DNA from: Candidatus Woesearchaeota archaeon
GTDB taxonomy: Archaea > Nanobdellota > Nanobdellia > Woesearchaeales > DSVV01
Assembly (NCBI GenBank): GCA_018661705.1
Contig: JABJHR010000010.1
Coordinates: 66,911-130,910, forward strand
DNA length: 64,000 bases
Reading direction: 5' to 3'
Made by a program: the position numbers and the translations under genes
The notes under the pieces: generated by a model
The model's input: the letters and a program-made list of their open reading frames with translations, nothing else
What the model was told of the DNA's origin: nothing
Database searches by the model: none
Part shown: positions 22,104-62,340 of the stretch, one piece after another
Numbering within the stretch: position 1 is the stretch's first letter
How the letters are laid out: every line of letters starts with the position of its first letter

Positions 22104-22185
22104 AATAATGTAGGTTGACAGGGGGTTGTCCCTTACGGGGTGGTCGATAGGTTTGAACGAAGTGAAAATCGTCTACCATTATTAA
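22104..22185 (+). repeat. Repeat family C copy (C1)
   Basis: AATAATGTAGGTTGACAGGGGGTTGTCCCTTACGGGGTGGTCGATAGGTTTGAACGAAGTGAAAATCGTCTACCATTATT. Closing stem AATAATG/CATTATT and a GC-rich hairpin with GGGGG. Confidence 0.6.
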
Positions 22186-22222
22186 AATAAAAAAATTCAA
22201 ATTCTTAGAAAAACCATCACAA

Positions 22223-22831
22223 TTAAATTTGGTTAAAGAAATTCAGTTCTCTATCTTCTAATTCTCGCCATTGACTTCTTACTAATCCTCGTCTTGTTAA
22301 CGTACCAAATTTAATTCTTTCCATAAATTCAATTTCATAGCCAAGGCTTGCAAAAACTTTTCTAACATATACATCACTTTTTTCAAAAACTTTTATTCTT
22401 AATAATGATTTTCTTTCGCTGGCAAATTTTATAATCCATGGCCTTAAGTGATGTTTTTTAAAATGAAAACCATTTCTCATTTCAATAAAATCTTTTTTTC
22501 TTAGTGGTTTATTTAATCTAATATAATATGTGAAATAGATTTTATTACTTCTTCTTATTTTCTCCACCATTTCTTTATCATCTGTTAAAACCATTAGTCC
22601 TTCAGAATCAAAATTTAATGTATCAACAGGAATTAAATTATCACTTACATAAAATGAGTCACCTGGTCTTCTATCATCATCCTGTGATCTTCTTTTGATT
22701 GGTTCTATATCAAACAATAGATTAATTGTATTTTTCTTTCCAATCATCCTTTCTTTTGGAAGTTCTCCAGTAATTGGATCTACAGAAATATATTCCTTTG
22801 GCTTGTTTAATACTATGTATTGAAATTCCAT
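22223..22831 (-). CDS. pseudouridine synthase, RsuA/RluB family (no S4 domain)
   Basis: YIVLNKPKEY and PVDTLNFDSEGLMVLTDD match the RsuA-family catalytic-Asp motif (hRLD..SeGLl). Confidence 0.65.
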   Translation of the reverse strand: MEFQYIVLNKPKEYISVDPITGELPKERMIGKKNTINLLFDIEPIKRRSQDDDRRPGDSFYVSDNLIPVDTLNFDSEGLMVLTDDKEMVEKIRRSNKIYFTYYIRLNKPLRKKDFIEMRNGFHFKKHHLRPWIIKFASERKSLLRIKVFEKSDVYVRKVFASLGYEIEFMERIKFGTLTRRGLVRSQWRELEDRELNFFNQI

Positions 22832-22953
22832 AATATATAATTAAAGGGTTCTATTAATAAATATTTGTATAAATACATATTAAATTATATTTAAACATAG
22901 GATTTAGTAACAATGTCACATACAAAAAACAACAATGGCGCACTTTAATAATC

Positions 22954-23060
22954 CAACAATAATGGCACAGACTGGCCGGGGGTTGGCTCCTTCGGAGTGG
23001 CCAGTAGGACTAATTCGAACATAGTGAGAATTTGGACGTCTGTTGCCATTATTATTGTTG
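22954..23060 (+). repeat. Repeat family C copy (C2), immediately upstream of tRNA-Met
   Basis: CAACAATAATGGCACAGACTGGCCGGGGGTTGGCTCCTTCGGAGTGGCCAGTAGGACTAATTCGAACATAGTGAGAATTTGGACGTCTGTTGCCATTATTATTGTTG. A 19-bp closing stem, a CTCC-UUCG-GGAG hairpin, GGGGG. Confidence 0.65.
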
Positions 23061-23135
23061 GATTCATTATCTACTTATTTTCAATCAAAAACAGTAAAAA
23101 CATTTATAAACAAATTACTTTTCTTAAGACATCAT

Positions 23136-23309
23136 GGCGGCATAACTCAGCCTGGAAGATGTTGATCATCTGGGCAATTAGAGTGCCACGCTCATATTGT
23201 TGAGCTAGGAGTTCCTTAATTGGGATGATGACTAAACAAGAGGCACGTGGATGTCCCGAGTTCAAATTTTGAAAAAGTTATTTTTCAATTGAAAGTCTCG
23301 GTGCCGCCA
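23136..23309 (+). tRNA. tRNA-Met/Ile2 (anticodon CAU) interrupted by three putative introns (D-arm 23 nt, canonical 37/38 48 nt, T-loop 29 nt)
   Basis: Hand-folded. Acceptor GGCGGCA/TGCCGCC, D-stem ACTC/GAGT with loop AGCCTGGAA, anticodon stem CCACG/CGTGG with loop CUCAUAA, variable ATGTC, T-arm CCGAG-TTCAAAT-[intron]-CTCGG, discriminator A, then oligo-T. Mature length 74. Confidence 0.5.
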
Positions 23310-23345
23310 CTTTTTTATCTATATAATAAAAATTGGGGTGAAAGA

Positions 23346-23810
23346 ATGAGAAAACTGATTGTATTAATGATTGTATTGTTTCTATTTGGATTTATTGGAT
23401 GCACAACTGTTACAGAAGTTGTTACAGAAGAACAGCTAGAGAAGAGTATGGAAGAGAATGGTGCTGATGATGTTGAAGTTGACATTAAAGATGGTGGCAA
23501 AGAAATGACAATTGAGACAGAAGAGGGCACAGTTAATGTTAAAACAGATATGAAAAATGTTGATGATTGGTGTGCAACTGGTTCAAACTGGAAATATGCA
23601 GCAGATATTGATGATGGTCAAACTAATGCAAAATGGGAAGTTTTAGGTATGGCTTCTGGTGAATATGCTGGATTATGTCATGTAAAATACACAGCAGTTG
23701 GTCCAGAAGGAGATGCTACCATGGATTATTACTTCAGTGAAGATGGCGAATCTGGTTATTTTGAAATGGATGTAGGCGGCCAAGTTATGAAGCAAGAGTG
23801 GCACAACTAA
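23346..23810 (+). CDS. small secreted lipoprotein, unknown function
   Basis: Start at MRKLIVLMIVLFLFGFIGCTT (GGGGTGA ribosome-binding site); lipobox FIGC; the track start at 23247 would overlap the tRNA. Confidence 0.5.
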   Translation: MRKLIVLMIVLFLFGFIGCTTVTEVVTEEQLEKSMEENGADDVEVDIKDGGKEMTIETEEGTVNVKTDMKNVDDWCATGSNWKYAADIDDGQTNAKWEVLGMASGEYAGLCHVKYTAVGPEGDATMDYYFSEDGESGYFEMDVGGQVMKQEWHN

Positions 23811-23876
23811 AAGATAAGTAAGTAGTTTTAAGTCATAAGTAAGTAGTTTTGGTTTGTAGTAGATAAGTAAGCAGTG

Positions 23877-23943
23877 TACTACCAACTACCAACTACTAAC
23901 TACCAACTACCAACTACCAACTACCAACTACCAACTACCAACT
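23877..23943. repeat. heptanucleotide tandem repeat (CTACCAA)x9, then (CTTCATA)x3
   Basis: actaccaactaccaactactaactaccaactaccaactaccaactaccaactaccaactt read directly; lies in the 3' region after the lipoprotein gene. Confidence 0.8.
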
Positions 23944-24408
23944 TATAACCCACTTCATACTTCATACTTCATACTTCAAACTTAGAACTCATATCCCCCT
24001 TATCTACTCCCGAGTGATTTAATGTTTATTCTTTATGATTTTGCTAGTAGAAAGGTTGTATTCTTAAATTTCTTATATTTTATAATCTCCTTATCGCAAA
24101 GTTTATAAACTACCAATTACTATAAAGGAATACATTAAAAGAGTTGTGTTGGGCTTTATACGCCCTAGTATAGTACTAAGTATAGTACATCGTATAATGT
24201 TTCATAAAAGCATTAACTAGTAAACAAGAGGTTGAACTCTACTTTCCAAGTAGATAATGCTCTTAGCTTTATCTAATGCTTTAATCCAAGTAGATAAAAG
24301 AATAAAAAACGAGTCAGAAAACAAACAAAATAAGAAAAAAACAAATAAAACAAGCAAAATACATACATAAAATACAAAAAAGTACGGAAAAGAATTGAGG
24401 TGAAAAGA

Positions 24409-24681
24409 ATGAAACGGATTATGGCAATATTAGGATTATTGCTCGTGTTTGGATTGGTGTTTGGGTGTAGTGCCCCATCAGAAGAACCTGCAATGGAAGC
24501 TGACGAACCAGCAGCAGATGTCGCAGAAGAGCCTGAATTAGGAGAAGAAGAACCTCTGCTAGAAGAAGATGAAAGTCTAGATGCAGGGGAAGAACCTGAA
24601 GGTGACATGGAAGATCCTGAAGCTGATGAAATGGAAGATGAATCAGAAGCTGAAGATGGTGAAGAGGACCTTGAGGTTTAA
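24409..24681 (+). CDS. small acidic lipoprotein (signal peptide + D/E-rich tail)
   Basis: GAGGTGA ribosome-binding site, MKRIMAILGLLLVFGLVFGCSAPSEEP... lipobox, then about 60 aa that are about 45% Asp/Glu. The antisense ORF 24273..24608 is rejected. Confidence 0.45.
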   Translation: MKRIMAILGLLLVFGLVFGCSAPSEEPAMEADEPAADVAEEPELGEEEPLLEEDESLDAGEEPEGDMEDPEADEMEDESEAEDGEEDLEV

Positions 24682-24788
24682 AATGAATGGATTTTTTATT
24701 TTTCTTTTCTTAACAAAACAAATATGTAATCACTGTGTGATAGTTCTAAAAACAAAGATTTAAAAATCCACACGCACACCCTCCTTCT

Positions 24789-26153
24789 ATGGCCACTAAC
24801 TTAGCTAAGTTATTAGAATTAAGAACAGAATTAGATGGATTTCTATCAGGATATGAGCAAAGAAAGCATTTATTTGATCAAGTTCCTAAATACGATATAG
24901 ATCTAGTATTCTCTCTGTGGGATGAATATTTGGCTTTTTTAGATGAAAATGCTGATGCAGAGAAAGCAGAGCGAGTAAGAAGAGCAGAAAAAAGAGTAAA
25001 AGAAGGGCAAGAATATGAAGAAACACCTGCAGTGCATTTAGATGGTGGTTTTCCAGAGAAGATTCGTGAACCTATTAAACATATTTACAAGGCAATGAAT
25101 GATACATTAAATTTAGTTTTTCCTTCAACTAATATTCCAGAATTAGCTGAAAATGCACTAGGAGATCCCAAATTATGGAAATTCTTTGTTCATGATATTA
25201 ATCACCTTGATTCAGATCTTAACAGACAACAATGGACAGTTAGTCAAGTTTATTTTGATGAGTCTGTTGCAAGAATGAGGCACAGAAGAGAAGAAATGAG
25301 ATGGTTTTTAGAGCTATTCAATAATAATTCTGAATTTATGTATGGAGCTAAAATCGAACCATATAAAATGCTTGATTTTATTGTAGCAGATGAGCTTGGA
25401 GAAAGACAAAAGATGGCCTTCTTTAAACCAGCTGATTTGGCTTTGAAAACTGCTTTAACATTGCAAAACAGACATCCACAATTTGAATTTGCTTTAGTTA
25501 ACGAATTAACTGATAGTTTACAAAATGAGATTGCAGTTGATGCTGAACCAGTTGCAATGTATGGGAATTCTGGCCTAGCTTTTTCAATTCTTTATAATTT
25601 AGCTAAAAATGCTTACAAAAAAATGGTTGCTGGAAAAAATACTGGTGAAAAAATGTTTATGCAAGTTTATGAAGCTCCTTTATCTTCAGTTGTTATAACA
25701 GTAGGTGATAATGGAACTCCAATTGATTTAAACAAAATGAAATCTCAAGTAAGAGAATTAATCAAAGAAAATGGAATTGAAAGTGTTGTATTTCCTAATA
25801 AAGAAGCAAAACAAAGATATCAGGGTTGGCAAGAATCTGAATATAAAATTGGAGATTTAACCATGAAAGATATTACAGATGTTGCATTCATGGCAAGAAT
25901 GAGTGGATTTGATAGTGATAATGCATTTTCTTCAGGAATGGGTTTATATGGATTAAAATATTTTGTTGAGAAAATGGGTGGTATTGCTATGTATGGAGAA
26001 AACTTTGAAACTGGAAGTCCACTTTTCACTTGTATCCTTCCGAAGAAAATGGAAACTGGTGGGGTAAGAAGAGTTCTTAATTTATTATCATCTACTTATA
26101 ATGCTACTAAACTATACAGGCATGGTCATGGAAGAGTTCAAAGAACAGCATAA
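24789..26153 (+). CDS. GHKL-type ATPase domain protein (histidine-kinase-like ATPase without recognisable HisKA/sensor domain)
   Basis: C-terminal N-box ILYNLAKNAYKKM, G1 VGDNGTPID, G2 SSGMGLYGLKYFVEKMGG; N-terminal 250 aa unassigned. Confidence 0.5.
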   Translation: MATNLAKLLELRTELDGFLSGYEQRKHLFDQVPKYDIDLVFSLWDEYLAFLDENADAEKAERVRRAEKRVKEGQEYEETPAVHLDGGFPEKIREPIKHIYKAMNDTLNLVFPSTNIPELAENALGDPKLWKFFVHDINHLDSDLNRQQWTVSQVYFDESVARMRHRREEMRWFLELFNNNSEFMYGAKIEPYKMLDFIVADELGERQKMAFFKPADLALKTALTLQNRHPQFEFALVNELTDSLQNEIAVDAEPVAMYGNSGLAFSILYNLAKNAYKKMVAGKNTGEKMFMQVYEAPLSSVVITVGDNGTPIDLNKMKSQVRELIKENGIESVVFPNKEAKQRYQGWQESEYKIGDLTMKDITDVAFMARMSGFDSDNAFSSGMGLYGLKYFVEKMGGIAMYGENFETGSPLFTCILPKKMETGGVRRVLNLLSSTYNATKLYRHGHGRVQRTA

Positions 26154-26159
26154 ATTACT

Positions 26160-26756
26160 TTAATTTTTTGATTCTGATATAATTACTTCACCAAGAGGAT
26201 CATTATTTTTCATTGACAATGCTACTGAATTAACAGAAATTCTAGTTAGTTCATCTTTGTATCTTCTGTTTTTGTCTAAATCTTCAGCAACTTCTAAATA
26301 ATGTGTTGCATGATTTACATAATCTTCTGAATCATCATATCTTTCTTCTTTAGTTAACAAATAAGCTTCATGCATATACACATTAGCAAGGTCCATAAAT
26401 ATTCTTGGATTATCTTTGTGTGTTTGAAGTCCTCTTTTAAGTAATTTAGTTGCATCATTAAATTTACAATATTTTGCTTCTCTCCAACCAACAGCAAAAG
26501 CATGGTAAACAGAAATATCTGCTTCTTCTTTTAGTTTTATCATTGATCCACATAACTCAATCATGGGTCTAACTAATGCGTCATATAATCCAGAACTATG
26601 TGTTCTTGCATACCAACGTGCATAAGATGTTGCAGAACCAGCTTCAACTAATTTAACTAATCTTTTTTTACCAAACACATCTAAATTTTTTCTAAGATAG
26701 TCTATTGTATCATCTAGTGTATCAAAAAACTTTGCTGATCTTGTCACCTCTACCAT
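26160..26756 (-). CDS. hypothetical protein (helical)
   Basis: 198-aa ORF, no motif recognised. Confidence 0.4.
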   Translation of the reverse strand: MVEVTRSAKFFDTLDDTIDYLRKNLDVFGKKRLVKLVEAGSATSYARWYARTHSSGLYDALVRPMIELCGSMIKLKEEADISVYHAFAVGWREAKYCKFNDATKLLKRGLQTHKDNPRIFMDLANVYMHEAYLLTKEERYDDSEDYVNHATHYLEVAEDLDKNRRYKDELTRISVNSVALSMKNNDPLGEVIISESKN

Positions 26757-26774
26757 AATTTCACTATCTATTAT

Positions 26775-27029
26775 CTACTCTATTTTTTTATTCATTTTTT
26801 TCAAAGGAAGAACAAAGATTAAATAAATTATTCCAAAACCTATGAATAAGTAAATCATGTCATAGGGATTCATTACAAAGTAAGTCATGTGAGCAATTAC
26901 TGAAACAATTCCAATAATTCCCCATATTAATTTAAGTTTTTTTTGGTCTATCATTTTTTTGGTAATGGGTGGTGTGTTTTGAGTCTTGAGTTGGTTTTGG
27001 GCAAGTAAGTTTTGAGAAAATTGCATCAA
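26775..27029 (-). CDS. small membrane protein (2 TM)
   Basis: 84 aa with two hydrophobic helices. Confidence 0.35.
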   Translation of the reverse strand: MMQFSQNLLAQNQLKTQNTPPITKKMIDQKKLKLIWGIIGIVSVIAHMTYFVMNPYDMIYLFIGFGIIYLIFVLPLKKMNKKIE

Positions 27030-27083
27030 TACTCATAACTTCTTACCAACCCATAACTCAATACTCACAACTACTTACTATAA

Positions 27084-28106
27084 TCATATCTTTTTCATAA
27101 TTACTTTATGTTTATATTTCTTCATTTCTTTCAAAGCTTGTTTCCATGTTAGTAATATATTTTTTGCTCCATAACTTTGAATTACACTTTCTGCATTTGT
27201 TGCTGCTAAGAATAAACAAAATTCAATTGGTTTATTTTTTGCTAATCCTGCAATAAATGAAGAGGTAAATGCATCACCTGCTCCTGTTGTTTCCATAATC
27301 TTAACTTTTCTCGGTTCAATATGGTATAAATAATTCTTTTTTTCATCAACAAAACAATACGATCCGTTTTTCCCATCTGTAATTAACACAATATTAGGTC
27401 CAAGAGTATTTAGTTCTTTAACTAATCTTTCAATTTTTATGTTTTTGTTTTCACATTTATATCCTAATAATAATTTTGCTTCCTCTAAATTAAGAACTAA
27501 TGCCGTTGTTTTGTCAAGAATTTTTTTTAATTTTTTAGGACCTTCTTTTGCAAGATAATTAGTAGGATTAAAAGCAATTTTTATCTTATTTTTTTCTGCA
27601 TATTCTGCTAGTTTCTCTAAAGTTTTAAATGATTCACCTAACATTGTGCAAAAATAAAACCATTTTGCTTTTAATTTTCCTTTTTTAATTTGTTTATTTA
27701 GCTTGCTGAATTTTAATTGATTGCTCAATGCCTTATACGTGAGGATAGTTCGATGATGTTCAATACTATCAAGAATTACTGAATATGCCGTCATTCCTTT
27801 TTCTTCTTCATGTCCTATAAAAGAAACTTTTTCTTTTTTCAATTCTTCAATTATATGTTTTCCATTATCATCTTTTCCAACCATTCCAAGACAAGCTGTT
27901 TTTAGTCCCAATCTAGAAAAACAAACACCTGTATTAGTTGCTCCTCCTCCTGTCATAAAATCAAGTTGTTCTATAAGAACTTTTTTCCCGCAAGGATAAG
28001 CAATAAGATCTTCCTGGCATGTTTTTGTTTTTATTCTTATTAGTTCATTGTCTGTTTTAACAAATACATCAACAGTAGCAGATCCAACAGTTATTACATC
28101 ATACAT
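27084..28106 (-). CDS. PfkB-family carbohydrate/nucleoside kinase (ribokinase-like)
   Basis: N-terminal VITVGSATVDV, GG dipeptide region FMTGGGATNT, C-terminal TTGAGDAF (ATP-binding anion-hole motif). Confidence 0.75.
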   Translation of the reverse strand: MYDVITVGSATVDVFVKTDNELIRIKTKTCQEDLIAYPCGKKVLIEQLDFMTGGGATNTGVCFSRLGLKTACLGMVGKDDNGKHIIEELKKEKVSFIGHEEEKGMTAYSVILDSIEHHRTILTYKALSNQLKFSKLNKQIKKGKLKAKWFYFCTMLGESFKTLEKLAEYAEKNKIKIAFNPTNYLAKEGPKKLKKILDKTTALVLNLEEAKLLLGYKCENKNIKIERLVKELNTLGPNIVLITDGKNGSYCFVDEKKNYLYHIEPRKVKIMETTGAGDAFTSSFIAGLAKNKPIEFCLFLAATNAESVIQSYGAKNILLTWKQALKEMKKYKHKVIMKKI

Positions 28107-28147
28107 TTTAATTAATTCAGGGTTAAGGAAGTTTATAAATCTTGCTG

Positions 28148-28302
28148 TTTGATGGCAATGTCAAACTAATTGTGTTTGCCTACTATTTGTCATTTTCATA
28201 ATTTAATGCTTTAGCATACTTTGTTGTCTACCACATTGAGGCGAAGCAAGATGGTTGGTAGGCTGAAAATGGCTGGCAACACATATAACATAACATTGCC
28301 AT
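28148..28302. other. structured intergenic segment with long-range inverted repeats (candidate ncRNA)
   Basis: GATGGCAATGT...ACATTGCCATG ends; TGTGTTTGCC/GGCAACACA, GCCTAC/GTAGGC and GTCATTTTC/GAAAATGGC pairings. Confidence 0.35.
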
Positions 28303-28373
28303 GTTTGTTAGTCTTGTTAATTTAAGTGTATTAATCATGAATGGGTGCCTTTTACACTTGAATCCATAAAAAT

Positions 28374-28446
28374 CCGGGAAAGTGCCTCATCCCACATTAA
28401 AGTGTGGGGTATGATGAGGCACTTTCCCGGATTTTTAGGATCCCAT
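28374..28446. other. 30-bp near-perfect palindrome/hairpin AAAAATCCGGGAAAGTGCCTCATCCCACA-TTAAAG-TGTGGGGTATGATGAGGCACTTTCCCGGATTTTT
   Basis: Read directly; followed by a second hairpin, CCCATGAAAGCA ... TGCTTTCATGTGG (28455-28525). Confidence 0.6.
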
Positions 28447-28625
28447 GAAAGCATTATGCGGCACAGGACCACATCCAGAACCTAAATGATCTGGTATTGT
28501 GCTTTCATGTGGATAAGGGTAACTTTTATAAAACAAAAGGCCTTTCTTCCTATAATTATATCTCTATTATGAGATATACTCAAATAACGTACATTATAAT
28601 AATGAAGCAAACAAGGTGAGACCAA

Positions 28626-29033
28626 ATGACAGGAGATAATACAGGAATTGAATATATTGCAAGTGGAGCATCAGCTGTAGAAGCACAAAAGAAATTAGAT
28701 GCTATGAAGAAAAAAGGAACAAAAGGAGCAAAACCATACAAGGTAGAGTATTTTGTTGAATTTACTGGAATTAAACCAGATACACAAGGTCAAGTTTTTG
28801 CAGGAGATAGAAGTACTGACAGCGGAAGAGCTTATGATAATGCCATGGCAAAAACAGGTTGTAATACTTTGGCAGAATTAACTGATAAATATGCTGCAAC
28901 TTTTAAGGTAATTGGTCATTGGGGAAATCAACCAGCTAAAAAAGACGCAAAAGATCCATCTTGTAGAAGTCCTTCTGGTAGTGTAATTGATACAACTAGA
29001 AGAACAGAAGATCTTACATACAAATTATTTTAA
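28626..29033 (+). CDS. hypothetical protein
   Basis: 135-aa ORF, AGGTGAGA ribosome-binding-site-like sequence upstream. Confidence 0.4.
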   Translation: MTGDNTGIEYIASGASAVEAQKKLDAMKKKGTKGAKPYKVEYFVEFTGIKPDTQGQVFAGDRSTDSGRAYDNAMAKTGCNTLAELTDKYAATFKVIGHWGNQPAKKDAKDPSCRSPSGSVIDTTRRTEDLTYKLF

Positions 29034-29133
29034 TTATTATTTTATCTTATTTTATTATTTTTCACAAAAAAGTGTTTTGAGACTTCTTACTTAATTAAAG
29101 TATAAAAACATAACGGAGAAAAACTAATATAAA

Positions 29134-30693: not shown

Positions 30694-30734
30694 TTTTAGT
30701 TTTTCTAGTAATATATAGGGTTATAACGCCTTTC

Positions 30735-30780
30735 TACAATTGCGGATGCTTCTTTTTTCACTAGGATTTTTTCTATTTTC
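30735..30780 (-). repeat. Repeat family A, 5'-half fragment (reverse orientation)
   Basis: ACAATTGCGGATGCTTCTTTTTTCACTAGGATTTTT is the reverse complement of the A 5' end ...TAGTGAAAAAAGAAGCATCCGCAATTGT. Confidence 0.55.
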
Positions 30781-30911
30781 AGTTTTACTAAGATTGTAGT
30801 GAGAAAGAAGGGATTATCCCCTCAAAGTCCCCATTCAACCATCCTTTTACTATCATTAAATACTAAAACCGTACCCAAAGGCTTATATACTCCTGTTCTA
30901 TTCTATAACTG

Positions 30912-37235: not shown

Positions 37236-37342
37236 AAAAAGTTTCGTGAGCTATATGTCCTTCGGACCTAGTGTTGTAGTGTGACATGCAGTGTAATACT
37301 CTTCAACAATTGCGGATGCTCCTTTTGTCACTAAGAATTTTA
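37236..37342 (-). repeat. Repeat family A, intact copy (A3, reverse orientation)
   Basis: Reverse complement reads AAAATTCTTAGTGACAAAAGGAGCATCCGCAATTGTTGAAGAGTATTACACTGCATGTCACACTACAACACTAGGTCCGAAGGACATATAGCTCACGAAAC...; downstream of the - gene 37395..39236. Confidence 0.7.
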
Positions 37343-43163: not shown

Positions 43164-43350
43164 TTTCTTTATTAGACTAATATTAAACTCTCTCGTTCAC
43201 ACCGACCAAGATTAAGTGTTAATATCTTAATGTGGTCGGACAAAACATAAATTTATCATTTTACATTTTGCTCACTTGCCAAAATTGGCGATAGTTTAAT
43301 ATTAGCCTTTTTTATTAAACTTTATATATCATACAAATAATAACAAAAAA

Positions 43351-45185: not shown

Positions 45186-45280
45186 ATTAGAAGAAAATCG
45201 CTCATGTTTTTTATATGTTTTGGTCAGGTTTTGTGTTATTATAAGGAATTTTGTTTTTTTTATGTGAAAAAGAAAGATTA

Positions 45281-45516
45281 ATGAGTGACATGTCCTACGG
45301 ACCTAGTGTTTAATTTTATAATGTGGTGAGATAACAAAAAACAACAACAAAGGCACAGACGGACTTTTTCCAAAAGTCCTATTCGGCCGGTACTTGAGAG
45401 TTCGTAGAACTCACTCTCTTCGCACCACCTCATCTGGCCGTGTTGTTTTTTGTACTAAGAAGATAATATTTAATACTCTTTAACAATTGCGGATGCTATT
45501 TTTCTCACTAAGAGTT
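45281..45516 (-). repeat. Composite element: A 3'-half, B copy (B3, 45339-45448, with an extra internal hairpin), then A 5'-half, all in reverse orientation
   Basis: gagtgacatgtcctacggacctagtgtt ... aacaacaacaaaggcacagacggactttttccaaaagtcc...ggccgtgttgtt ... taatactctttaacaattgcggatgctatttttctcactaagag. Confidence 0.65.
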
Positions 45517-45549
45517 TTTATATCTGTAATATCAAAAAAGAAAATAATC

Positions 45550-48410: not shown

Positions 48411-48424
48411 TCTTGGAAAAAAAT

Positions 48425-48572
48425 CCTAGCGAAAAATAGCATTCGCAATTGTTAAAGAGTAATAATATTTAATATTTTAATACAAAAAATAACCATGGCC
48501 AGGCGAGGTGAAACCGAGTAGGATTTTTTGAGTGGAACGAAAAAAGTCCGTCTGTGCCTTTGTTGTTATTTT
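48425..48572 (+). repeat. A 5'-half (48425-48470) directly followed by a B copy (B4, 48486-48572)
   Basis: TAGCGAAAAATAGCATTCGCAATTGTTAAAGAGTAATAATATTT...AATAACCATGGCCAGGCGAGGTGAAACCGAGTAGGATTTTTTG-AGTGGAA-CGAAAAAAGTCCGTCTGTGCCTTTGTTGTTATTTT. Confidence 0.65.
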
Positions 48573-49734: not shown

Positions 49735-49921
49735 TTACTTTAAGTGATGTATTAAGCTACAACAAATGTTGTATTATTTTTCATTAATTTTAACCATTTA
49801 GGCGGCTCCGACAAAATGGTCTGTAAACTCTTTTTCTGTTATATTTCATTTTATTGATACTACCAAAACGATAAAATACCATTAATTTTATAAATAGATT
49901 CTTGTTTTTAAATTCTAACGC

Positions 49922-50072
49922 GCCAGCGTGGCACAATCTGGTACTGCGCAAGCCTGGAAATGTGCTTTTGCGCAAAGGTTAGCTTGTTGGCTTCGGCCTA
50001 TCCCGGTTCAAATATCAAACTGTGTTTAATACACAAAAAAACGCAGTTTTTTTGAATGTCCGGGCGCTGGCG
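49922..50072 (+). tRNA. tRNA-Ser (anticodon GGA) with two putative introns (37/38, 21 nt; T-loop, 46 nt)
   Basis: Hand-folded. Acceptor GCCAGCG/CGCTGGC, U8, 3-bp D-stem GCA/TGC, anticodon stem CAAGC/GCTTG with loop CUGGAAA, long variable arm TTGGCTTCGGCCTAT, T-arm CCCGG-TTCAAAT-[intron]-CCGGG, discriminator G, oligo-T. Mature length 84. Confidence 0.5.
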
Positions 50073-50140
50073 TTTTTTTATCTATCTAAGCTATTTCTTT
50101 CCATCAATTTTAAATATAACAATCTTTATAATATAATTTT

Positions 50141-53807: not shown

Positions 53808-53978
53808 ATAAGTACTATTAGTAACTAATTTTTGCAATTTCTATTATCAAGAACAAATATCTTTATAAATAACATTAACATACTAGACTTTGGTGATATG
53901 GTTTTTGGTGGCGACTTCGGTTGCCTCCCAGGAACCATTTTATTTAATCTTAATTATTTAAAAAAAGGAGGGATATTT

Positions 53979-54554: not shown

Positions 54555-54577
54555 TTTTTTTCTTTTTATAATTCTTA

Positions 54578-55483: not shown

Positions 55484-55569
55484 AATAGAAAGGTTACAAT
55501 TGGGGTATAAATAGTTTTTGCTGTTTTTTAGACATTTCTAGTAATATTTGACTTAAAAAACAAAATTCA

Positions 55570-55835
55570 CGAGAAACATGTCCTTCGGACCTAGTGTTGT
55601 AGGAGTTATTACTTTCTTTTATGATACAAAAAATAACAACTGGGCCAGATGAGGCAAAGCCGAATAGGATATTTTACAAAGTAAAATGTCCGTCTGTGCC
55701 GTTGTTGTTATTGTTGCTTGATGTTAATCATGTTTAATAATTTCGACTTTAGTCGTAATTATTATTGTTTTTTGCTAATGCTTTGTTTACTAAATAAAAT
55801 TACAATTGCGAATGCTACTTTTCTCACTAATATTT
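55570..55835. repeat. Composite element: A 3'-half (reverse), B copy (B5, 55632-55712, forward), spacer, A 5'-half (reverse)
   Basis: acatgtccttcggacctagtgttgtag ... AATAACAACTGGGCCAGATGAGGCAAAGCCGAATAGGATATTTTAC-AAA-GTAAAATGTCCGTCTGTGCCGTTGTTGTT ... ttacaattgcgaatgctacttttctcactaa. Confidence 0.65.
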
Positions 55836-55916
55836 AGTTTTTTACTTTAATTTAAAGATTGATTAAGATAATTTCGCACAAAATATAAATACTTCTTAAC
55901 TATTAATAACTAAATC

Positions 55917-57866
55917 ATGAAAAAAACAATACTTGTTTTAATAATGGTCTTCTTAGTGAGCATTTCTATGGTTTTTGCTACCGATTGTGTATGGAAGAAG
56001 GTCATGGAGAGCTCTACTGAGTACAAAGGTCTTTTTGAAAATAAAGGCGACGTTTATGTTGCAGAAGCTGGAAAAATTCATTTTTCTGAAGATTATGCAA
56101 CTACATTTGAAGAATATGGTGAAAAAGAAACTTCTACATTTATAGATTTAGAATTAGATGGTAATGATTTAATTGCTGTATCCACAAAAGCAGCGTATTT
56201 AGTAGAGGATGATGGAAAGGAGAAAAAGTTTACAAAGTTTTTTGAAACTGATCCAATGGATAAATTTAGTTTGTTCGTAGCAATTGGTTCTGATTTTTAT
56301 GGTACTGATGGAAGTGAAAAAATAATTTTTAAAGACGGTACAGATAATGAAGACCAAATTGGAGAAGAAACAGCAGCTCTTACTGGTGTTTCTGATATTT
56401 CAGAGATGGTTAATATTGACAAACAATTATGGGTTGTTCCCAAAGCAGATTCAAAGTTACATTATTCCAAAAACCCATTAGACGTTTGGTATACAACTGC
56501 AAACATGGGAAGTATTCAAGACCTAGGGAATGTTAATTCAATTGGTGATAATGTCTATATTACTGGTAGAAAGAAAGGTGAAGATCTTAAAATTAAATTT
56601 ACAGTAACAGATAGTTCTTCATGGAGTGATTATCCTGCACAAATAATTGGTGTTGAAGAATTTAATGCATTATTAATGTTTGAATCTACCAACCCATTTG
56701 CTTTAGTTAAGTTAAATGATGGTTCTGTTAAAATCTATAAACAATATTCTAACACAGAATGGAAAGAATATGGGACTGGATTAGGAGCAGAAATTGTTGG
56801 TGGTGTTAGTTTAATTAAAATGAGTAATGATAAATTACTTCTTTTGGCGAATACAACCGGAGATAAAAATGCATTGTTAAGATGTGAACCAAATAGTAAA
56901 CCTGTTGCTAAAGCGGGCTTAGATCAAAAAGTTTTTGTTGGTGAAACAGTTAAATTGGATGGTACAAAATCATTTGATTCTGACGGTGACAAAATGAGTT
57001 ATGATTGGCAACAACCAGCTGTTGATAAAGTAATGTTAACTGGTGGTACGACTTCATCTCCTGAATTTTTAGCTTCTACTGCTGGAAAATATTTATTTAA
57101 TCTTTTTGTTCAAGATGAGTTTGGTGGAGCATCCTCTCCCGATACTGTTGTTGTTGACGTCATAAAGGGAACAGAATATTATTTAGGGTTAGAATCTGAA
57201 ACCGATCATTTTTCTTGGGTAGAGGGTAATGATTACAAGTTAGGTAGTGTTTTCTTTGATGGAAGCAAACAAAATGATTATTACTTAGCATTTAAATTTT
57301 ATCCAGGAGTTGGTAATGTAGTTAACACACCACTTCCTTTTGCAACAGCAACTTCTACAAGTATTTTCACAAATAAACCTGTGCAGAAAGTTATATTCAA
57401 TGACGTTAATAGTATTAAAATTGCGTCCGTCTACCTTAAGTCTAGTGCAAATTTAGAAGCAAAAGGTGATGATGTAACTTTAAAGATTAGAAAAGGAAGT
57501 ATTGGTGGTGAAGTAATTGCAGAATCTACACAATTTGTTTCAAAGAAAACTTATCCAGAGTGGGTAGAGTTTGTTTTTGCAGGAGCTGGTGATAATGTTG
57601 ATGTTAGCGACGAAGCAGATACAAGCGACGACGTTGATACTGAAGAAACAGAAACAGAAGAAGATACAACAACTACTGACACAACTAAATCTAGCGACGA
57701 CAAAGAAGTAACAACTGATGCAGACGAAACAAAAGATGATGAAACAAAAACAACAAATGCAATGTTTGGATTATCCAAATGGATGGCTGCTGGTATTGTT
57801 GGAGTTGTTTTATTAATAATAATTGCAGTTGTTGTTTTAATATTTCTTTTGGCAAGAAAGAAGTAG
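55917..57866 (+). CDS. cell-surface protein with PKD domain, acidic Thr/Asp-rich stalk and C-terminal TM anchor plus basic tail (possible archaeosortase-type substrate)
   Basis: Signal peptide; PKD motif KPVAKAGLDQKVFVGETVKLDGTKSFDSDGDKMSYDWQ; C-terminal ...MAAGIVGVVLLIIIAVVVLIFLLARKK. Confidence 0.55.
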   Translation: MKKTILVLIMVFLVSISMVFATDCVWKKVMESSTEYKGLFENKGDVYVAEAGKIHFSEDYATTFEEYGEKETSTFIDLELDGNDLIAVSTKAAYLVEDDGKEKKFTKFFETDPMDKFSLFVAIGSDFYGTDGSEKIIFKDGTDNEDQIGEETAALTGVSDISEMVNIDKQLWVVPKADSKLHYSKNPLDVWYTTANMGSIQDLGNVNSIGDNVYITGRKKGEDLKIKFTVTDSSSWSDYPAQIIGVEEFNALLMFESTNPFALVKLNDGSVKIYKQYSNTEWKEYGTGLGAEIVGGVSLIKMSNDKLLLLANTTGDKNALLRCEPNSKPVAKAGLDQKVFVGETVKLDGTKSFDSDGDKMSYDWQQPAVDKVMLTGGTTSSPEFLASTAGKYLFNLFVQDEFGGASSPDTVVVDVIKGTEYYLGLESETDHFSWVEGNDYKLGSVFFDGSKQNDYYLAFKFYPGVGNVVNTPLPFATATSTSIFTNKPVQKVIFNDVNSIKIASVYLKSSANLEAKGDDVTLKIRKGSIGGEVIAESTQFVSKKTYPEWVEFVFAGAGDNVDVSDEADTSDDVDTEETETEEDTTTTDTTKSSDDKEVTTDADETKDDETKTTNAMFGLSKWMAAGIVGVVLLIIIAVVVLIFLLARKK

Positions 57867-57918
57867 TTTTTTTAATTTTTTATTTCTTTTAATTTAACTT
57901 GTTAAAAAACAAAAATTT

Positions 57919-58060
57919 GTGAGTGACATGTCCTTCGGACCTAGTGTTGTAGAGATTAATTATTTTCTTTTATGATACAAAAATAACAACAATGGCCAGG
58001 CGAGGTTAAACCGAGTAGTATTTTTTCGACAGAATGGAGAAAAAATGCGTCTGTGCCATT
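57919..58060. repeat. A 3'-half (reverse) followed by a B copy (B6, 57980-58060, forward)
   Basis: gtgagtgacatgtccttcggacctagtgttgtag ... AACAACAATGGCCAGGCGAGGTTAAACCGAGTAGTATTTTTTC-GACAGAATGGA-GAAAAAATGCGTCTGTGCCATTACTTGGTGTT. Confidence 0.65.
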
Positions 58061-58196
58061 ACTTGGTGTTAATCAAGCTTAATAATTCCTGACTTTAGTC
58101 GGAATTATTTTTGTTGTTGTTATTTCGTTATTATATTAATTATTAATAGAATTTTCAAACCAACTTATTACTTAAAACTTAGAACTAACAACTTCA

Positions 58197-58802
58197 CTAC
58201 AACCTATGGCCCATTCGTGCTTTCTTTGTTCCTAGATATTTTTCATTGTGTTTGTTTGGTTCAATTTTAATTGGTGTCATTACTGCATGGATTCCTTTTT
58301 CTTGTAATGGTTTTACTTTTTTTAGATTGTTTGTTAACAATCTTAGAGAACCAACTTTGAAATAGTCTTTTAATATTATTGCGCAGGCTTCATAATCTCT
58401 TAAATCTGGAACAAAACCAAGCTCCATGTTAGCTTCTACTGTGTCATAGCCTTTTTCTTGTAATTTATAGGCCTTTGTTTTGTTTTTCAGGCCTATTCCT
58501 CTACCTTCTTGCCCTAGATAAAACAATAATCCATGCCCTTCTTGAGCAATTAACTGCTTTGCTTTAGCTAATTGTTCTCCACAATCACACTTTTTGCTAT
58601 CAAATAGGTCTCCAAACATGCATTCGCTATGTATTCTGCACATAACATTTTCTTGTCTAAACACTTCTCCTTTTGCAAGAACAGAAATATATTCATTAAA
58701 CCGCTTAAATAGGAAGAATTTGGTATCATCCCCTACTTGTGTGGGCAGATTAACTACTTCAACTAACTCTACATCTTCCTTGTCAAAGTGTTCTTTAACC
58801 AT
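58197..58802 (-). CDS. ribA: GTP cyclohydrolase II (RibA-type)
   Basis: CRIHSECMFGD, CDCGEQL zinc motif, YLGQEGRGIGLKNKTKAYKLQEKGYDTVEAN. Confidence 0.75.
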   Translation of the reverse strand: MVKEHFDKEDVELVEVVNLPTQVGDDTKFFLFKRFNEYISVLAKGEVFRQENVMCRIHSECMFGDLFDSKKCDCGEQLAKAKQLIAQEGHGLLFYLGQEGRGIGLKNKTKAYKLQEKGYDTVEANMELGFVPDLRDYEACAIILKDYFKVGSLRLLTNNLKKVKPLQEKGIHAVMTPIKIEPNKHNEKYLGTKKARMGHRL

Positions 58803-58882
58803 GGAAAATAGGAAGTGGTTATTGTTTTTAAATGTTATTGATTTAAGTTATGTGTTTTTTAGTTAATATTGATGAGAAAGCA

Positions 58883-59926
58883 TCACTTAGTAAAAAAACT
58901 CTTAATTTTGTCTAAAAAACTATTATTTTTACCATGTGTTATTTCTTGTTCTATTTCAATTTCTTTTTCTTTGTGTTTTACTTTAGTTGACATTTTTTTT
59001 TCTGATTGAATCTCTTTTATATGTTTAATAATATCATTTGTTGACCAATTCTTAACACAATCTTGAATTCTTCTCATTCCAGAAGCATAATAAGCAGAAA
59101 ATGCATCGTTTATTCTTCCTGATTCTAATAGGTTATCAGCAATAACTAATATTTCTTTTTTTTTATAATCTTCTTGAAGTTTTTGAAACCCAAATTTTTC
59201 ACCAATCAATATCATTTTTTTTATTTCTTTGTTTTTTATAAACTTTAGTTCATCTTTTTTAGTAGTTGGATTAGTGATAATTCCTATTTTCTTTCCTACT
59301 TTTTGTAGTTTATCAAATTTTTCTATTAATTTCTTATTTTCATCTTTATTTAAAATGTATTCTGTAGTCTGTACTGTTTTTTCTTTTACCCTTGGTTGAT
59401 TAATTATTGTTTCTCGTAGTGTTATTGGTTCATTTATTTTTTGTTTGTTTAGGATACATAATCCTTCATTTAGAAAATCTCTTTTTTCTTCTAATGTTAA
59501 GTAATCATTGTTTAAACCACGGATTATTAAGTCAATTGTTTTATTTAAAACATTTTTATAATCATGATGGTGAAGTGGTATTTTTTTCAGTGCCCAATAA
59601 TAAAGCATTAGAGCTTCTTTTTCTTTCTTTTCCTTTAATCTCTTCTCTGCAACTTTAACTTGTGTTTCATAAGGTTCCTCTCTTGATGTTACAGCAGGTA
59701 ATTTTTCCCACCCATCCATTGTTCTTAAGAAAGATGACTCATAATCAACATACCCACATTTTGGGCAACTATCTACCCATGAATTATGTGTCTCTTTTAG
59801 ACTAGAAAGTTTGTGGAATGGTTTTTCTGGCTCTTTTATTATTATACCCATACATCCACTCAAAAAACCTTTTCTTCTAGCCTCATTTTCCTGAGAAATC
59901 ATTACATTACATTTTGGACAAATCAT
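58883..59926 (-). CDS. hypothetical protein with N-terminal zinc-ribbon motifs
   Basis: MICPKCNV... and ...CPKCGY pairs of CxxC; 347 aa. Confidence 0.4.
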   Translation of the reverse strand: MICPKCNVMISQENEARRKGFLSGCMGIIIKEPEKPFHKLSSLKETHNSWVDSCPKCGYVDYESSFLRTMDGWEKLPAVTSREEPYETQVKVAEKRLKEKKEKEALMLYYWALKKIPLHHHDYKNVLNKTIDLIIRGLNNDYLTLEEKRDFLNEGLCILNKQKINEPITLRETIINQPRVKEKTVQTTEYILNKDENKKLIEKFDKLQKVGKKIGIITNPTTKKDELKFIKNKEIKKMILIGEKFGFQKLQEDYKKKEILVIADNLLESGRINDAFSAYYASGMRRIQDCVKNWSTNDIIKHIKEIQSEKKMSTKVKHKEKEIEIEQEITHGKNNSFLDKIKSFFTK

Positions 59927-60303
59927 ACTTATAGAATAGTTCTGCTATATATAAATATTTCCTCTTTTTGTTAGACTTTTTTCTTGTTTAATGTTTTGGG
60001 GAAAATAAATTAATTTTCCGTAATATTTCCTAGTTCTCGAGGAGAAATTAACTTTTTTTCGGGAAAATAACTTTGTTTTCCTCACTCTATAATAGCCTCA
60101 CAGAAACAGAAAGCTTTATATACCTCCTCTTTCAGTGAAATACTTGAGTGGGTAAAGTATTATTGGGAATATTATGTGTAATATAATTCATAATACTATT
60201 TTCGTCGGGCCATCATCCTAATCTCTAAAGTTCGATACTCCCCGGATTAGGATGTTTGGTGTTTTGGGGGTGTCATAGACAATTTATGTGTGTGTGGCAT
60301 TTA

Positions 60304-61167
60304 ATGAGTGGAAATCAAAAAGAGGTTCAATTAAAAGAAGTGTTTAGGGGTAAACATTTCACAGAAAAAGACATTTCTAGAGTTCTCAATCTTTCACAAT
60401 CTAATGCACATTATTTCCGTCATAAACTTCTAAAACAACAGAAAATTGCTAGGATAGCTAGAGGAAAGTATAAATTTACTAGTTCTGAACAAGAATTTAA
60501 GCACGACTCACTTACTCAATACATACAAAAATCATTATCTATTCTAAACAAAAAGTTTGTAATTACAGGAAGCTCTTTCTTTAATAGGTTTTATCCACTC
60601 TCAAACCACATTGTTATTTATGTAGAAAAAGGTTCTGCACAACTATTTCTTGGTTACTTAGCCTCACTCCAGTTAAACTTTGTTGCTTTAGCAGAGCCAA
60701 AAGCAGAAGAGATTGAATTGTTAAGAACACACGCACAAAAACGAAATTTTATAATAATCAGGGAGAAAAACTATTTCTATGGCTCAACAGAAGGAATTGC
60801 TTCTTTAGAAACAGCATTTGTTGATTATTATTTTGAAATTACTAGAAAATTATTACCAATTGAAAATAAGGTAGAAGATGTTCTTGATCATTTACTCGCT
60901 AACCACACATTAAACATTTCCACTCTTCTTAGGTATGCAAAAGAAAGAGGAATTAGAACTGAAATTAAAAATCTGCTAGAAGATGTAAAAATGTTACATT
61001 ATACAAAGCAAGAAAAAGATAAAACGACTAGTGATAGTACTTCTTTAGTTTCTGATAACAAACAAAATACAGATTCTGATTTTGATCCAGAACAACATAA
61101 TTTCCCGGACAAAAAACCAAAATCATTCAGACTAATCAAAATTAATGATGGTGATAATCATGAATAA
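60304..61167 (+). CDS. hypothetical protein
   Basis: Start taken at the first ATG (MSGNQKEV...); the track ORF starts with TTG. Confidence 0.4.
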   Translation: MSGNQKEVQLKEVFRGKHFTEKDISRVLNLSQSNAHYFRHKLLKQQKIARIARGKYKFTSSEQEFKHDSLTQYIQKSLSILNKKFVITGSSFFNRFYPLSNHIVIYVEKGSAQLFLGYLASLQLNFVALAEPKAEEIELLRTHAQKRNFIIIREKNYFYGSTEGIASLETAFVDYYFEITRKLLPIENKVEDVLDHLLANHTLNISTLLRYAKERGIRTEIKNLLEDVKMLHYTKQEKDKTTSDSTSLVSDNKQNTDSDFDPEQHNFPDKKPKSFRLIKINDGDNHE

Positions 61168-62236
61168 AAATAAACACGCACAACTTTCCTTATTTGTATT
61201 ATTAGGAGTAATTGCTTTGGTCTTATTAGGTGTTTCAGTTTATTTTATTACAAAACCAGCAGCAGTTGTTGAAGAAGATAAACCTGTAACAATTAAAACA
61301 TTTGTTGAAAGATGTTTACAAGATACAACTTTGGGTGGGGCATCTTTAATTGCAGTTCAAGGCGGAGTAATTTATGATGTAGATGAAATGCTTGATACAG
61401 CTGCAATTGATATTGAAAACAAAGTTGCTTATGGTTATTATAATGATAAGAATTTAGTTGTAACAAGAGAAATAATGCAAGACGAGATGAGTGATTATAT
61501 TGAAAATGCATTACCTAGTTGTATTAATAACTTTGAACAATTTGTTGGAACAACTGTTGAACATGGGGAAATTACAGCAGAAACAACAATTACTATAAAT
61601 AAAATAATTGTTACTATTAATTATCCAATTAAATATGATCAAGGAGCATCAGAAGAAACAATTGATCAATTTAATGCTGAGCTTGATTTAAGATTAGGTT
61701 ATATACGAGAGATAATAAATGAAGCAGTTGAAGCACAAATAGATGATCCGTTCTTTATTGATTATACAATGTTAGGACAGATGGCACAAGGATTGCATGA
61801 GTTTAAACATTCTGATGTTGTAATAGGTGGACAACAACCAATCTCAGATAGTATTGATATTATTCCTGTAGATGAACAAAATTATTTGTTAGCAATAAAT
61901 GATTCTGGATTATTATTCTTATCAGCGTTTGAAATCAAACAAAATAATGCTCCTTTGATGGAAATCCTTGAACAATTTGTGGTTACAGAAGGTGAAGAGT
62001 TTATTTTCACAGTAGAGGTTGAAGATGATGATTCTGAAATTGAGTTTAGTGATGATTCAGGAATGTTTGACATCTCTGCAAATGGATTAATTAGATTTAC
62101 ACCAGAAATTCCGGGAGAGTATGAAGTTATAATCACAGCAACAGATCCTCATGGTAATTATGATTCAAGATTAGTTAATTTTGTTGTCGAAGAAAAGCAA
62201 ATTGGAGTAACAAATGATGAGGTGGTGCTTGAATAA
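61160..62236 (+). CDS. membrane-anchored extracellular protein with C-terminal Ig/PKD-like region
   Basis: GGTGA ribosome-binding site, then MNKNKHAQLSLFVLLGVIALVLLGVSVYFI (signal anchor); ...ITATDPHGNYDSRLVNFVV. Confidence 0.45.
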   Translation: MNKNKHAQLSLFVLLGVIALVLLGVSVYFITKPAAVVEEDKPVTIKTFVERCLQDTTLGGASLIAVQGGVIYDVDEMLDTAAIDIENKVAYGYYNDKNLVVTREIMQDEMSDYIENALPSCINNFEQFVGTTVEHGEITAETTITINKIIVTINYPIKYDQGASEETIDQFNAELDLRLGYIREIINEAVEAQIDDPFFIDYTMLGQMAQGLHEFKHSDVVIGGQQPISDSIDIIPVDEQNYLLAINDSGLLFLSAFEIKQNNAPLMEILEQFVVTEGEEFIFTVEVEDDDSEIEFSDDSGMFDISANGLIRFTPEIPGEYEVIITATDPHGNYDSRLVNFVVEEKQIGVTNDEVVLE

Positions 62237-62260
62237 AATTAGAGATTAAGATCTAAAGCA

Positions 62261-62340
62261 AAAAATAATAACATTGGTGCTGGTGGGGGTGGGTTGGCTC
62301 CGTCGGAGTACCCGCCAGCTGCCGTTGTTGTTATTATTTT
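62261..62340 (+). repeat. Repeat family C copy (C3)
   Basis: AATAACATTGGTGCTGGTGGGGGTGGGTTGGCTCCGTCGGAGTACCCGCCAGCTGCCGTTGTTGTTATT. Closing stem AATAACA/TGTTATT, stem GCTGGTGGG/CCCGCCAGC, inner CUCC-GUCG-GGAG. Confidence 0.6.

Follow-up and report, generated by a model that had tools for sequence, protein, structure and literature searches.

A dispersed intergenic RNA family with a three-way junction in Woesearchaeota and related DPANN archaea

Results

A conserved fold

Three GC-rich intergenic elements, C1, C2 and C3, had been noticed, from the sequence alone, in a 64 kb stretch of an AT-rich archaeal chromosome (Candidatus Woesearchaeota archaeon, assembly GCA_018661705.1, contig JABJHR010000010.1, positions 66,911–130,910; about 31% GC), referred to below as the window. 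It is well supported that the three belong to one conserved family of structured RNA, approximately 70–110 nt in length and folded as a three-way junction (a Y shape). The sequence-only reading had proposed a structured RNA at these sites, and the very strong covariation among homologues, together with an excess of G-U over A-C combinations on the strand then given, bears this out.

An alignment of 24 members, analysed with RNAalifold, gave a three-way junction of 33 base pairs, 26 of which show compensatory changes. The closing stem, P1, is 15–25 bp long, has the inner part GGC-G-CAG / CUG-YU-GCC and carries a constant 3 nt bulge on its 3' strand; outward of this bulge the 5' arm is rich in A and C and the 3' arm in G and U, often ending in a U-run. 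P2 stacks directly on P1 with no linker. In C-type copies it bears a G-rich bulge of 8 nt on its 5' side (GAGGGUUG or GGGGGUUG) and a tip hairpin, either GCUCC-KUC-GGAGU with a 5 bp stem or, in the C1 type, UCCC-UUAC-GGGG. A single A separates P2 from P3, and the residues GU lead from P3 back to P1. P3 opens with GG, closes with CC and is otherwise variable, with a tandem G-A mini-hairpin at its tip in some members.

When this fold was imposed on 44 sequences (genome loci plus the window), 93.2% of cells were paired, compared with 33–47% in slid controls, and 30 of the 33 pairs had changed on both sides; in an independent set of 83 distinct metagenome sequences 89.6% of cells were paired (32–51% in slid controls), again with 30 of 33 pairs changed on both sides. 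Within the helices, and with the hairpin-closing G-U excluded, there are 40 G-U pairs against 14 A-C mismatches, so the folded strand is the one stated. The hairpin-closing G-U is itself invariant in the 24 founder sequences and is found in 36 of the 40 sequences of the 44-member set that have a P2 tip. Approximately 30 nucleotides at unpaired or junction positions are invariant in genomes of 30–50% GC, and copies from one genome differ in every helix yet keep the pairing. Two pairs of P2 occur either as tandem sheared G-A or as Watson–Crick pairs. A switch or triplex, in which the G-rich bulge and the 3' strand of the hairpin would compete for the C-rich strand, was also considered: the A or G of the bulge tracks a U-A or C-G pair in most types, but C2 and C3 are exceptions and the independent events are few, and the idea was set aside.

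Members in the window

C1, C2 and C3 are present at the sites originally proposed, all of them intergenic and on the plus strand. Covariance models built from homologues in other genomes score C2 at 86.5 bits (22954–23061) and C3 at 44–48.6 bits (62266–62337); C1 scores 47.1 bits (22097–22194), and 62.2 with a second covariance model. Compared with shuffled sequences, C2 and C3 are far better folded (z −5.1 and −6.0, respectively) and C1 alone is not (z −1.3). The 13-mer common to the three copies is by itself not significant in the window (three matches where 1.1 are expected, with 15 of 100 shuffles reaching three), and the case was therefore made from other genomes.

C1 (22097–22194, plus strand) lies where it had been placed but is somewhat longer than first thought. 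It is a complete member with a C1-type core: the P1 arms are at 22097–22113 and 22173–22195, P2 pairs 22114–22119 with 22143–22148, the G-rich bulge AGGGGGUUG occupies 22120–22128, the hairpin UCCC-UUAC-GGGG 22129–22140 and P3, with its tandem G-A tip, 22150–22170. The copy sits 30 nt past the stop codon of an exonuclease gene, within a convergent gene pair. C2 (22950–23064, plus strand) is likewise complete, with a C2-type core: P1 5' arm at 22950–22970, P2 at 22971–22977 with 22999–23005, bulge GGGGGUUG at 22978–22985, hairpin GCUCC-UUC-GGAGU at 22986–22998, the junction A at 23006, P3 at 23007–23037, and the junction GU with the P1 3' arm at 23038–23064. C3 (62258–62344, plus strand) is a short form without P3, with P1 arms at 62258–62280 and 62318–62344 (an outer stem of 16 perfect base pairs ending in U6), P2 at 62281–62287 with 62311–62317, bulge GGUGGGUUG at 62288–62296 and hairpin GCUCC-GUC-GGAGU at 62297–62309; it begins 21 nt past the stop codon of the upstream gene.

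Several details of the first description change with this fold. The supposed UUCG or GUCG tetraloop cap is a UUC or GUC triloop on the 5 bp stem GCUCC/GGAGU and, in C1, UUAC on UCCC/GGGG. The block TTYGAAC..AGTGA.AAT does occur in both C1 and C2, where it forms the tip of P3, but this tandem G-A mini-hairpin is absent from many members. What had looked like a degenerate B-like start before C2 is a partial duplicate of the 5' arm, AACAACAATGGCGCAC, at 22927–22945 on the plus strand directly before C2, like the arm duplication in locus L020 of another genome.

Nor are there only three copies. The covariance model also picks up the elements of the window that had been called family B, and alignment shows that family C is family B with a conserved hairpin and bulge inserted in the loop of P2, as expected if the two form one superfamily, which had been suggested. 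Family B is thus the same RNA minus the P2 tip, just as short C copies such as C3 are the same RNA minus P3. With six B-type members the window holds at least nine copies, which make up more than 1% of it. The B-type copy at 12934–13026 (minus strand) is a weak match (22 bits, E 0.005) with P2 CUGAUGAGG...GCUGAAU, and that at 14312–14394 (plus) has P1, the junction and P3 alike, its P2 being a short hairpin that contains a tandem G-A pair and is capped by a GAA loop. The copy at 45338–45448 (minus) has an enlarged P2 and lies between the halves of a second kind of repeat, family A, in the opposite orientation to that repeat; the copy at 55631–55714 (plus), after which two extra hairpins extend to about 55770, also lies between two halves of a family A repeat. 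The remaining two are at 48487–48572 (plus) and at 57971–58135 (plus), the latter a long form with two extra hairpins inside the outer closing stem and a model match at 57984–58072.

The genes of the window include those for ribosomal protein L10, MutS and sugar kinases, and no transposase or integrase was seen among them. Contigs of another Candidatus Woesearchaeota metagenome-assembled genome (MAG), GCA_018673555.1 (L039–L041), are 99.98% identical to the window, and the sole apparent strain difference at C2 in this other assembly of the organism (L041) is a scaffold gap of Ns. The seeming duplication there (6818–6917, reverse complement) is a run of 100 Ns at which the scaffold breaks within the element, in keeping with the large number of metagenome contigs whose ends fall at these repeats.

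Downstream of C2 lies a tRNA-Met gene (CAU) with three introns (23136–23309, plus strand), a neighbour and not part of the element. This proximity had been thought meaningful. The gene has its own TATA box (23103–23110), between C2 and the gene, and the neighbours of copies are unrelated across all loci; C2 seems to lie near tRNA-Met by coincidence. In the closest relative, an inverted tRNA-Met gene, followed downstream by a B-type copy, occupies the site syntenic to C1 and C2. Four copies were seen, by eye, just upstream of tRNA or signal recognition particle (SRP) RNA genes that have their own promoters, a marginal enrichment. Of the three introns of the tRNA-Met gene, as compared with L042 (2848–3000), one interrupts the D-loop, one follows the anticodon loop and one interrupts the T-loop; the inverted gene of the closest relative has no D-loop intron. 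Both ARAGORN and the Rfam tRNA model missed the gene at 23136–23309, and multi-intron tRNAs escape both.

Distribution among genomes and carriage by insertion sequences

In species-representative genomes the 19-mer GGGTTGGCTCCKTCGGAGT was found at 38 loci. Some 33 lie on Woesearchaeota/Nanoarchaeota-type contigs, often several per MAG, and have the complete structure around the word; in the other five, from GC-rich bacteria, the word stands alone, and chance would yield about as many. The C1-type 22-mer GGGGGTTGTCCCTTACGGGGTG occurs at no fewer than 80 loci in a metagenome scan, and neither core word is present in viral contigs. Further copies are therefore many, and conservation in relatives is deep. 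A full-text search of the literature for the core sequence and for structured RNAs, ribozymes or repeats of DPANN archaea and Woesearchaeota found nothing relevant; the family is an undescribed one, order-wide in DPANN archaea. Complete elements also lie on MAG contigs labelled 'uncultured Methanosarcinales' or, in one case, 'Planctomycetales' (L003, L010, L013, L018, L025, L030, L036–L038 and L028). Since L037 matches a Nanoarchaeota MAG in gene order and at 65% protein identity, these labels, or the binning, are probably wrong.

Copy number is patchy, with nine copies in the 64 kb analysed here and one in 17.6 kb of the closest relative (MutS 79% identical). Gain or loss is seen at a pair of copies upstream of lspA in one MAG that is absent from the syntenic site of another (L021 and L022), near-identical copies occupy different loci of one MAG (L013, L036), and many metagenome contigs break at the element. 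The syntenic region of the closest relative (L042) lacks the block at 12003–17447 of the window, which lies between NAGidase and GH66 genes (PhoU/MazE-like, ARPP-1, metallophosphoesterase, APH-like kinase and others). Two B copies and one family A repeat fall in this block, so that a variable region is enriched in the repeats.

At seven of the 80 metagenome loci a transposase gene of the DDE type (PF01609, DDE_Tnp_1) is followed, 21–33 nt downstream and on the same strand, by a C1-type copy. These IS4-like insertion sequences (IS), of about 1.4 kb, form two subfamilies (L050, L063, L097, L099 and L125; L062 and L092). Their ends, CAGTAGTTCC... and ...TTATCTACTG (CAGTAG.../...CTACTG), are defined by two IS copies 99.3% identical over 1401 nt, which places the element inside the IS. 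In both subfamilies the complete element lies between the transposase stop codon and the right inverted repeat; the layout of subfamily 2 is alike even though its transposase is only 27–31% identical to that of subfamily 1. IS ends were not found beside stand-alone copies.

Position and orientation relative to genes

Copies are found strictly between genes, and the genes beside them are unrelated. Of the copies flanked by co-directional genes, 31 have the sense and 10 the antisense orientation (27 and six, respectively, for single copies), and eight of 65 copies lie in convergent regions. Many start 17–30 nt past the upstream stop codon. The next start codon is mostly 72–95 nt beyond the copy, with a TATA-like box in the spacer. 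A and C make up 39% and 26% of the 5' arm, U and G 46% and 26% of the 3' arm, and a U-run of at least four residues is present at the 3' end in 53 of 120 copies and at the 5' end in 20 of 120. Upstream of the elements no consistent TATA box was found in the GC-richer genomes. As a candidate partner we considered the pseudouridine-synthase-like gene between C1 and C2. Its product is of the RluA type (PF00849); homologues were found neither beside other copies nor beyond the species, which made the gene uninformative for synteny, and it was rejected.

Adjacent pairs are head-to-head in 19 of 19 cases, with gaps of 8–31 nt or with one arm common to both. In such doublets (for example L012 5692–5859, L021 6148–6343, L108 350–522 and L056 2368–2575) the 5' arms and P2 sides face each other, and in five of them a single DNA segment is the 5' arm of both partners. 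In a read-through RNA the arm on either flank could pair with this common arm, so that one fold would preclude the other.

Known classes

A scan of the whole window against Rfam 15, one of the checks first proposed, matched no family. The C1–C2 region and two B copies, searched with E up to 10, gave no relevant family; 24 related loci gave no family for the element, and 16 related loci only tRNAs and one SRP RNA, none overlapping an element.

A hammerhead ribozyme was tried and rejected. The CAG pairs with CUG and covaries, and no ribozyme model matched at E up to 10. The G-A/A-G positions are Watson–Crick in about 60% of copies (with 13 of 44 and 32 of 83 in the class 'other'), so that G12 and A13 are lost; around the would-be A15.1–U16.1 there are an extra U and a bulged G, and the copy at 12934 has GUG at the cleavage site. 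The superficial hammerhead look of CAGAUGAG...CGAA...GUC is thus removed by the two P2 pairs that may be either sheared G-A or Watson–Crick. The bulge–helix–bulge motif of splicing or circularization requires two 3 nt bulges on opposite strands exactly 4 bp apart; P1 has a single 3 nt bulge, on the 3' strand, followed by 5–7 bp and a 1×2 internal loop (G against CU). A C/D box or K-turn does not fit, the tandem G-A being flanked on both sides by Watson–Crick pairs with no adjoining 3 nt bulge, the first GA of the C-like box not being conserved (CAGG in three copies) and an unpaired guide being absent, and for an H/ACA small RNA the element lacks the internal pocket and the ACA after the closing stem. 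Neither ARAGORN nor the tRNA and 5S rRNA models (E up to 10) matched, which disposed of a tRNA, a tRNA-like RNA or a 5S rRNA. A small open reading frame was rejected since the ATG in AAUGGCG is not conserved (CTG, ATA, ACG and others), and C1- and C2-type cores would encode unrelated peptides yet keep the hairpin.

Among mobile DNA elements, a MITE (miniature inverted-repeat transposable element) was rejected on the outer arms, which differ within one genome, and on the stand-alone copies, where IS ends are absent and no boundary duplications were seen. An integron attC site was rejected because the arms are AACAAC / GTTGTT and not R''/R' (RYYYAAC / GTTRRRY), and copies lie on both strands among housekeeping genes with no integrase in the window.

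Other features of the window

The family A repeat is about 95 nt long with terminal inverted repeats of 8–9 nt, TTAGTGAG / CTCACTAA. Copies lie at 37240–37335 (plus strand), about 11845–11945 (minus) and about 2745–2850 (minus). Two are split, 55560–55600 with 55780–55830 and 45280–45312 with 45470–45520, their halves flanking a B-type element once in each orientation. Half copies are at 48420–48465, 57915–57955 and about 30700–30760; two other B copies are preceded by one family A half. Its structure is weak, and no copy of it was found in loci L001–L038 of other genomes.

A second GC-rich island at about 49913–50080 resembles an intron-containing tRNA gene (GCGCCAGCGTGG...GGTTCAAAT...CCGGGCGCTGGCG) and was detected by no tool. 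Other long-stem intergenic elements lie at 28367–28437, 28152–28302, 43174–43308 and 4697–4784; they include a perfect 25 bp inverted repeat around a CCCACA...UGUGGG hairpin, also present in the relative L042 at about 2740–2765, and two stems of the AAAAAUCCG...CGGAUUUUU type. That at 28152–28302 has a B-like UGAGGCGAAGC segment inside and no score with the covariance models. The MutS of a relative (protein P0004, locus L043 6795–10832; 76% identical) contains an intein with a LAGLIDADG endonuclease, which the MutS of the window is without.

Discussion

Our working hypothesis, which we hold tentatively, is that the element is a cis-acting, reusable module of transcript ends, serving as a terminator, a stabilizer or an insulator. 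It is the reading that best accounts for the sense bias, a location shortly beyond stop codons, a 3' arm rich in U, the lack of any tie to gene function and the presence of copies behind two diverged transposase genes. On this hypothesis the element would be transcribed in the direction of its neighbours and would in the typical case form the 3' untranslated end of the gene before it, beginning immediately past the terminating ribosome. The inner junction would fold first, and the long P1 would close as the G/U-rich 3' arm and the U-run leave the polymerase; closure of P1 would favour termination at the U-run, and the paired end would resist 3' exonucleases. The element could in this way shield the next promoter, 35–55 nt downstream, from read-through. 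The invariant junction and P2 tip may be the docking site of a conserved factor, or may make a tertiary contact by which P2 comes to lie alongside the P1 bulges, and the module would spread by duplication and within insertion sequences, being easily gained and lost.

A number of observations weigh against this hypothesis. The terminator-like features are incomplete, with a 3' U-run in only 44% of copies and none in 56%, and in C1 the polarity is reversed. Sixteen of 65 copies lie in divergent intergenic regions, with no upstream gene to supply a transcript, and C3 is only about 25–48 nt before the next start codon, so it may be intra-operon. A pure 3'-end model predicts tail-to-tail pairs between convergent genes, and none was seen among the 19 pairs. 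There are no copies in about 100 kb from five other Woesearchaeota. Finally, some 30 invariant nucleotides are more than a mere terminator needs. The divergent-region copies, the head-to-head doublets, the missing U-runs and these invariant nucleotides keep two rivals, a small RNA and a selfish repeat, alive.

According to the former, which we regard as possible though doubtful, the copies are trans-acting small RNAs, scaffolds of ribonucleoproteins, that are promoterless, ride on neighbouring transcription and are trimmed to P1, the junction and P2 tip binding a dedicated protein. The invariant unpaired and junction nucleotides kept across genomes of 30–50% GC would then be explained, as would the locking of both ends in a long helix with conserved bulges, as in Y RNAs, an orientation that tracks transcription and the copies in divergent regions and upstream of tRNA or SRP RNA genes; head-to-head pairs could be divergent transcription units. 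However, nearly all variable nucleotides are paired, which leaves no guide-like single strand to account for dozens of paralogues, the GC-richer genomes lack a consistent upstream promoter, and in the doublets gaps of 8–31 nt or overlapping arms leave no room for one. Nor is a protein gene linked to the element, and the related genomes without copies also speak against it. That the element is instead a selfish, non-autonomous repeat, of which a single-stranded form (RNA or single-stranded DNA) must fold in order to be copied, appears to us rather unlikely. It would bring no benefit to the host, and the genomic patterns would be those of tolerated insertions. Patchy copy number between relatives, presence and absence at an orthologous site, a different element type beside an inverted tRNA gene at the relative's syntenic site, near-identical copies at separate loci of one MAG, partial duplications of the 5' arm, head-to-head doublets, carriage within insertion sequences and contigs that break at the element are all in its favour. 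Against these must be set the copies of one genome, which differ in every helix and stay at least 90% paired, with decayed relics scarce, and a sense bias of 4.5 to 1, which suggests use in transcripts. The outer arms are not common between copies and hence do not represent the inverted repeats of a single transposase; target-site duplications were not seen, stand-alone copies lack IS ends, and neither the window nor the surroundings of copies showed a reverse transcriptase or an HUH/Y1 enzyme.

Two further explanations carry much less weight. An element acting at the level of DNA, as a cruciform or hairpin at which a recombinase or another DNA-binding protein acts (comparable to attC, REP or an origin box), is in our view improbable. 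Long inverted repeats with conserved extrahelical bases and a conserved 21 bp core with a dyad and a G-string would suit such a site, templated repair of quasi-palindromes could mimic covariation, and the head-to-head doublets resemble REP doublets (REPINs). The strand-specific features, with G-U far in excess of A-C and a near-invariant closing G-U, and an orientation tied to transcription argue against this; cassette arrays, an integrase and R''/R' core sites are absent, and copies are spread over 40 kb among housekeeping genes. Judged by the consensus of the archaeal origin recognition box, the G-string is also on the incorrect side of the dyad. A self-cleaving ribozyme, whether related to the hammerhead or of a new class that cuts at the conserved GU-C junction, is more improbable still. 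B-type and some C copies do read CAG-AUGAG-stem-CGAA-UA-stem-GUC, like the core of a type I hammerhead, the three-way junction is compact, with parallel helices and conserved junction residues, and many hammerheads are associated with repeats (PMC3088659), as this element is. However, core residues are replaced and the CUG is paired and covaries, and no hammerhead or other ribozyme model matches.

A broader proposal, that the element represents a new active class of functional RNA, seems to us unlikely; such an RNA, no mere passive hairpin, would be either a structured terminator or 3'-end signal recognized by a factor, which could be the first of its sort to be described from archaea, or a catalytic or self-mobilizing RNA with the invariant junction (A, GU), the G-rich bulge and the hairpin as its active core. 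In the catalytic or self-mobilizing case the head-to-head doublets and the carriage by IS4-like elements would reflect propagation. To our knowledge, DPANN archaea, with their tiny genomes and almost no cultured members, have had essentially no non-coding RNAs described beyond the universal ones. Here one RNA fold absent from Rfam is kept, by sequence and by compensatory change, across many Woesearchaeota and Nanoarchaeota MAGs of 30 to 50% GC. Should the element mark or form the ends of transcripts, archaea would have a first known structured signal for gene ends, and the annotation of transcription units would gain a handle; if it acts in trans or propagates itself, it would be a new RNA class. 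In practical terms the family breaks metagenome assemblies, many contigs ending in the element, and its GC-rich cores are easily taken for tRNA-like genes; the covariance models could annotate it directly.

Among known RNAs, the type I hammerhead shares with the element a three-way junction, a tandem G-A by stem II (in about 40% of copies), a GUC after the third stem, and a loop and bulge able to dock between two parallel helices; it differs in that its core residues are not conserved in the element, 'C3-G5' are paired and its covariance model finds no match. Y RNAs, the Ro-binding RNAs, presumably resemble the element in ending in a long stem with small conserved bulges, in carrying a variable module on top and in having several paralogues. 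There is no sequence or model similarity to them, no Ro (TROVE) gene was seen and copies of the element are far more numerous. In genomic behaviour the element may be likened to archaeal C/D box small RNA genes, which in Pyrobaculum have many paralogues in the sense orientation at gene ends, without promoters and with poorly conserved gene order; in contrast to these it has no C/D boxes in K-turn geometry and no single-stranded guide, and is twice the size.

Intrinsic terminators, including bidirectional ones, are alike in their A-rich 5' arm, U-rich 3' arm and terminal U-run (in 44% of copies of the element), in lying just after stop codons and before the next promoter, and in a symmetric A...U layout that is the same on both strands. 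Archaeal termination, however, needs only oligo-U, whereas here the stem encloses a conserved branched insert of 50–80 nt, many copies have no U-run and copies occur also where no upstream transcript is expected. Like the bacterial ERIC/IRU, BOX, REP/BIME, REPIN and Correia repeats, the element is short, imperfectly palindromic, multi-copy and strictly intergenic. These bacterial repeats are, in a similar manner, transcribed with their neighbours, present or absent at orthologous sites, widely variable in copy number, modular and found as inverted doublets, and they are thought to affect mRNA stability or termination. The element differs from them in being archaeal and a three-way junction rather than a plain hairpin, in helices that vary within a genome by compensatory change while some 30 unpaired or junction residues are fixed over an order-level clade and in that no RAYT-type or other cognate transposase was found for it. 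In kind, the element belongs with the known dispersed structured intergenic RNA repeats.

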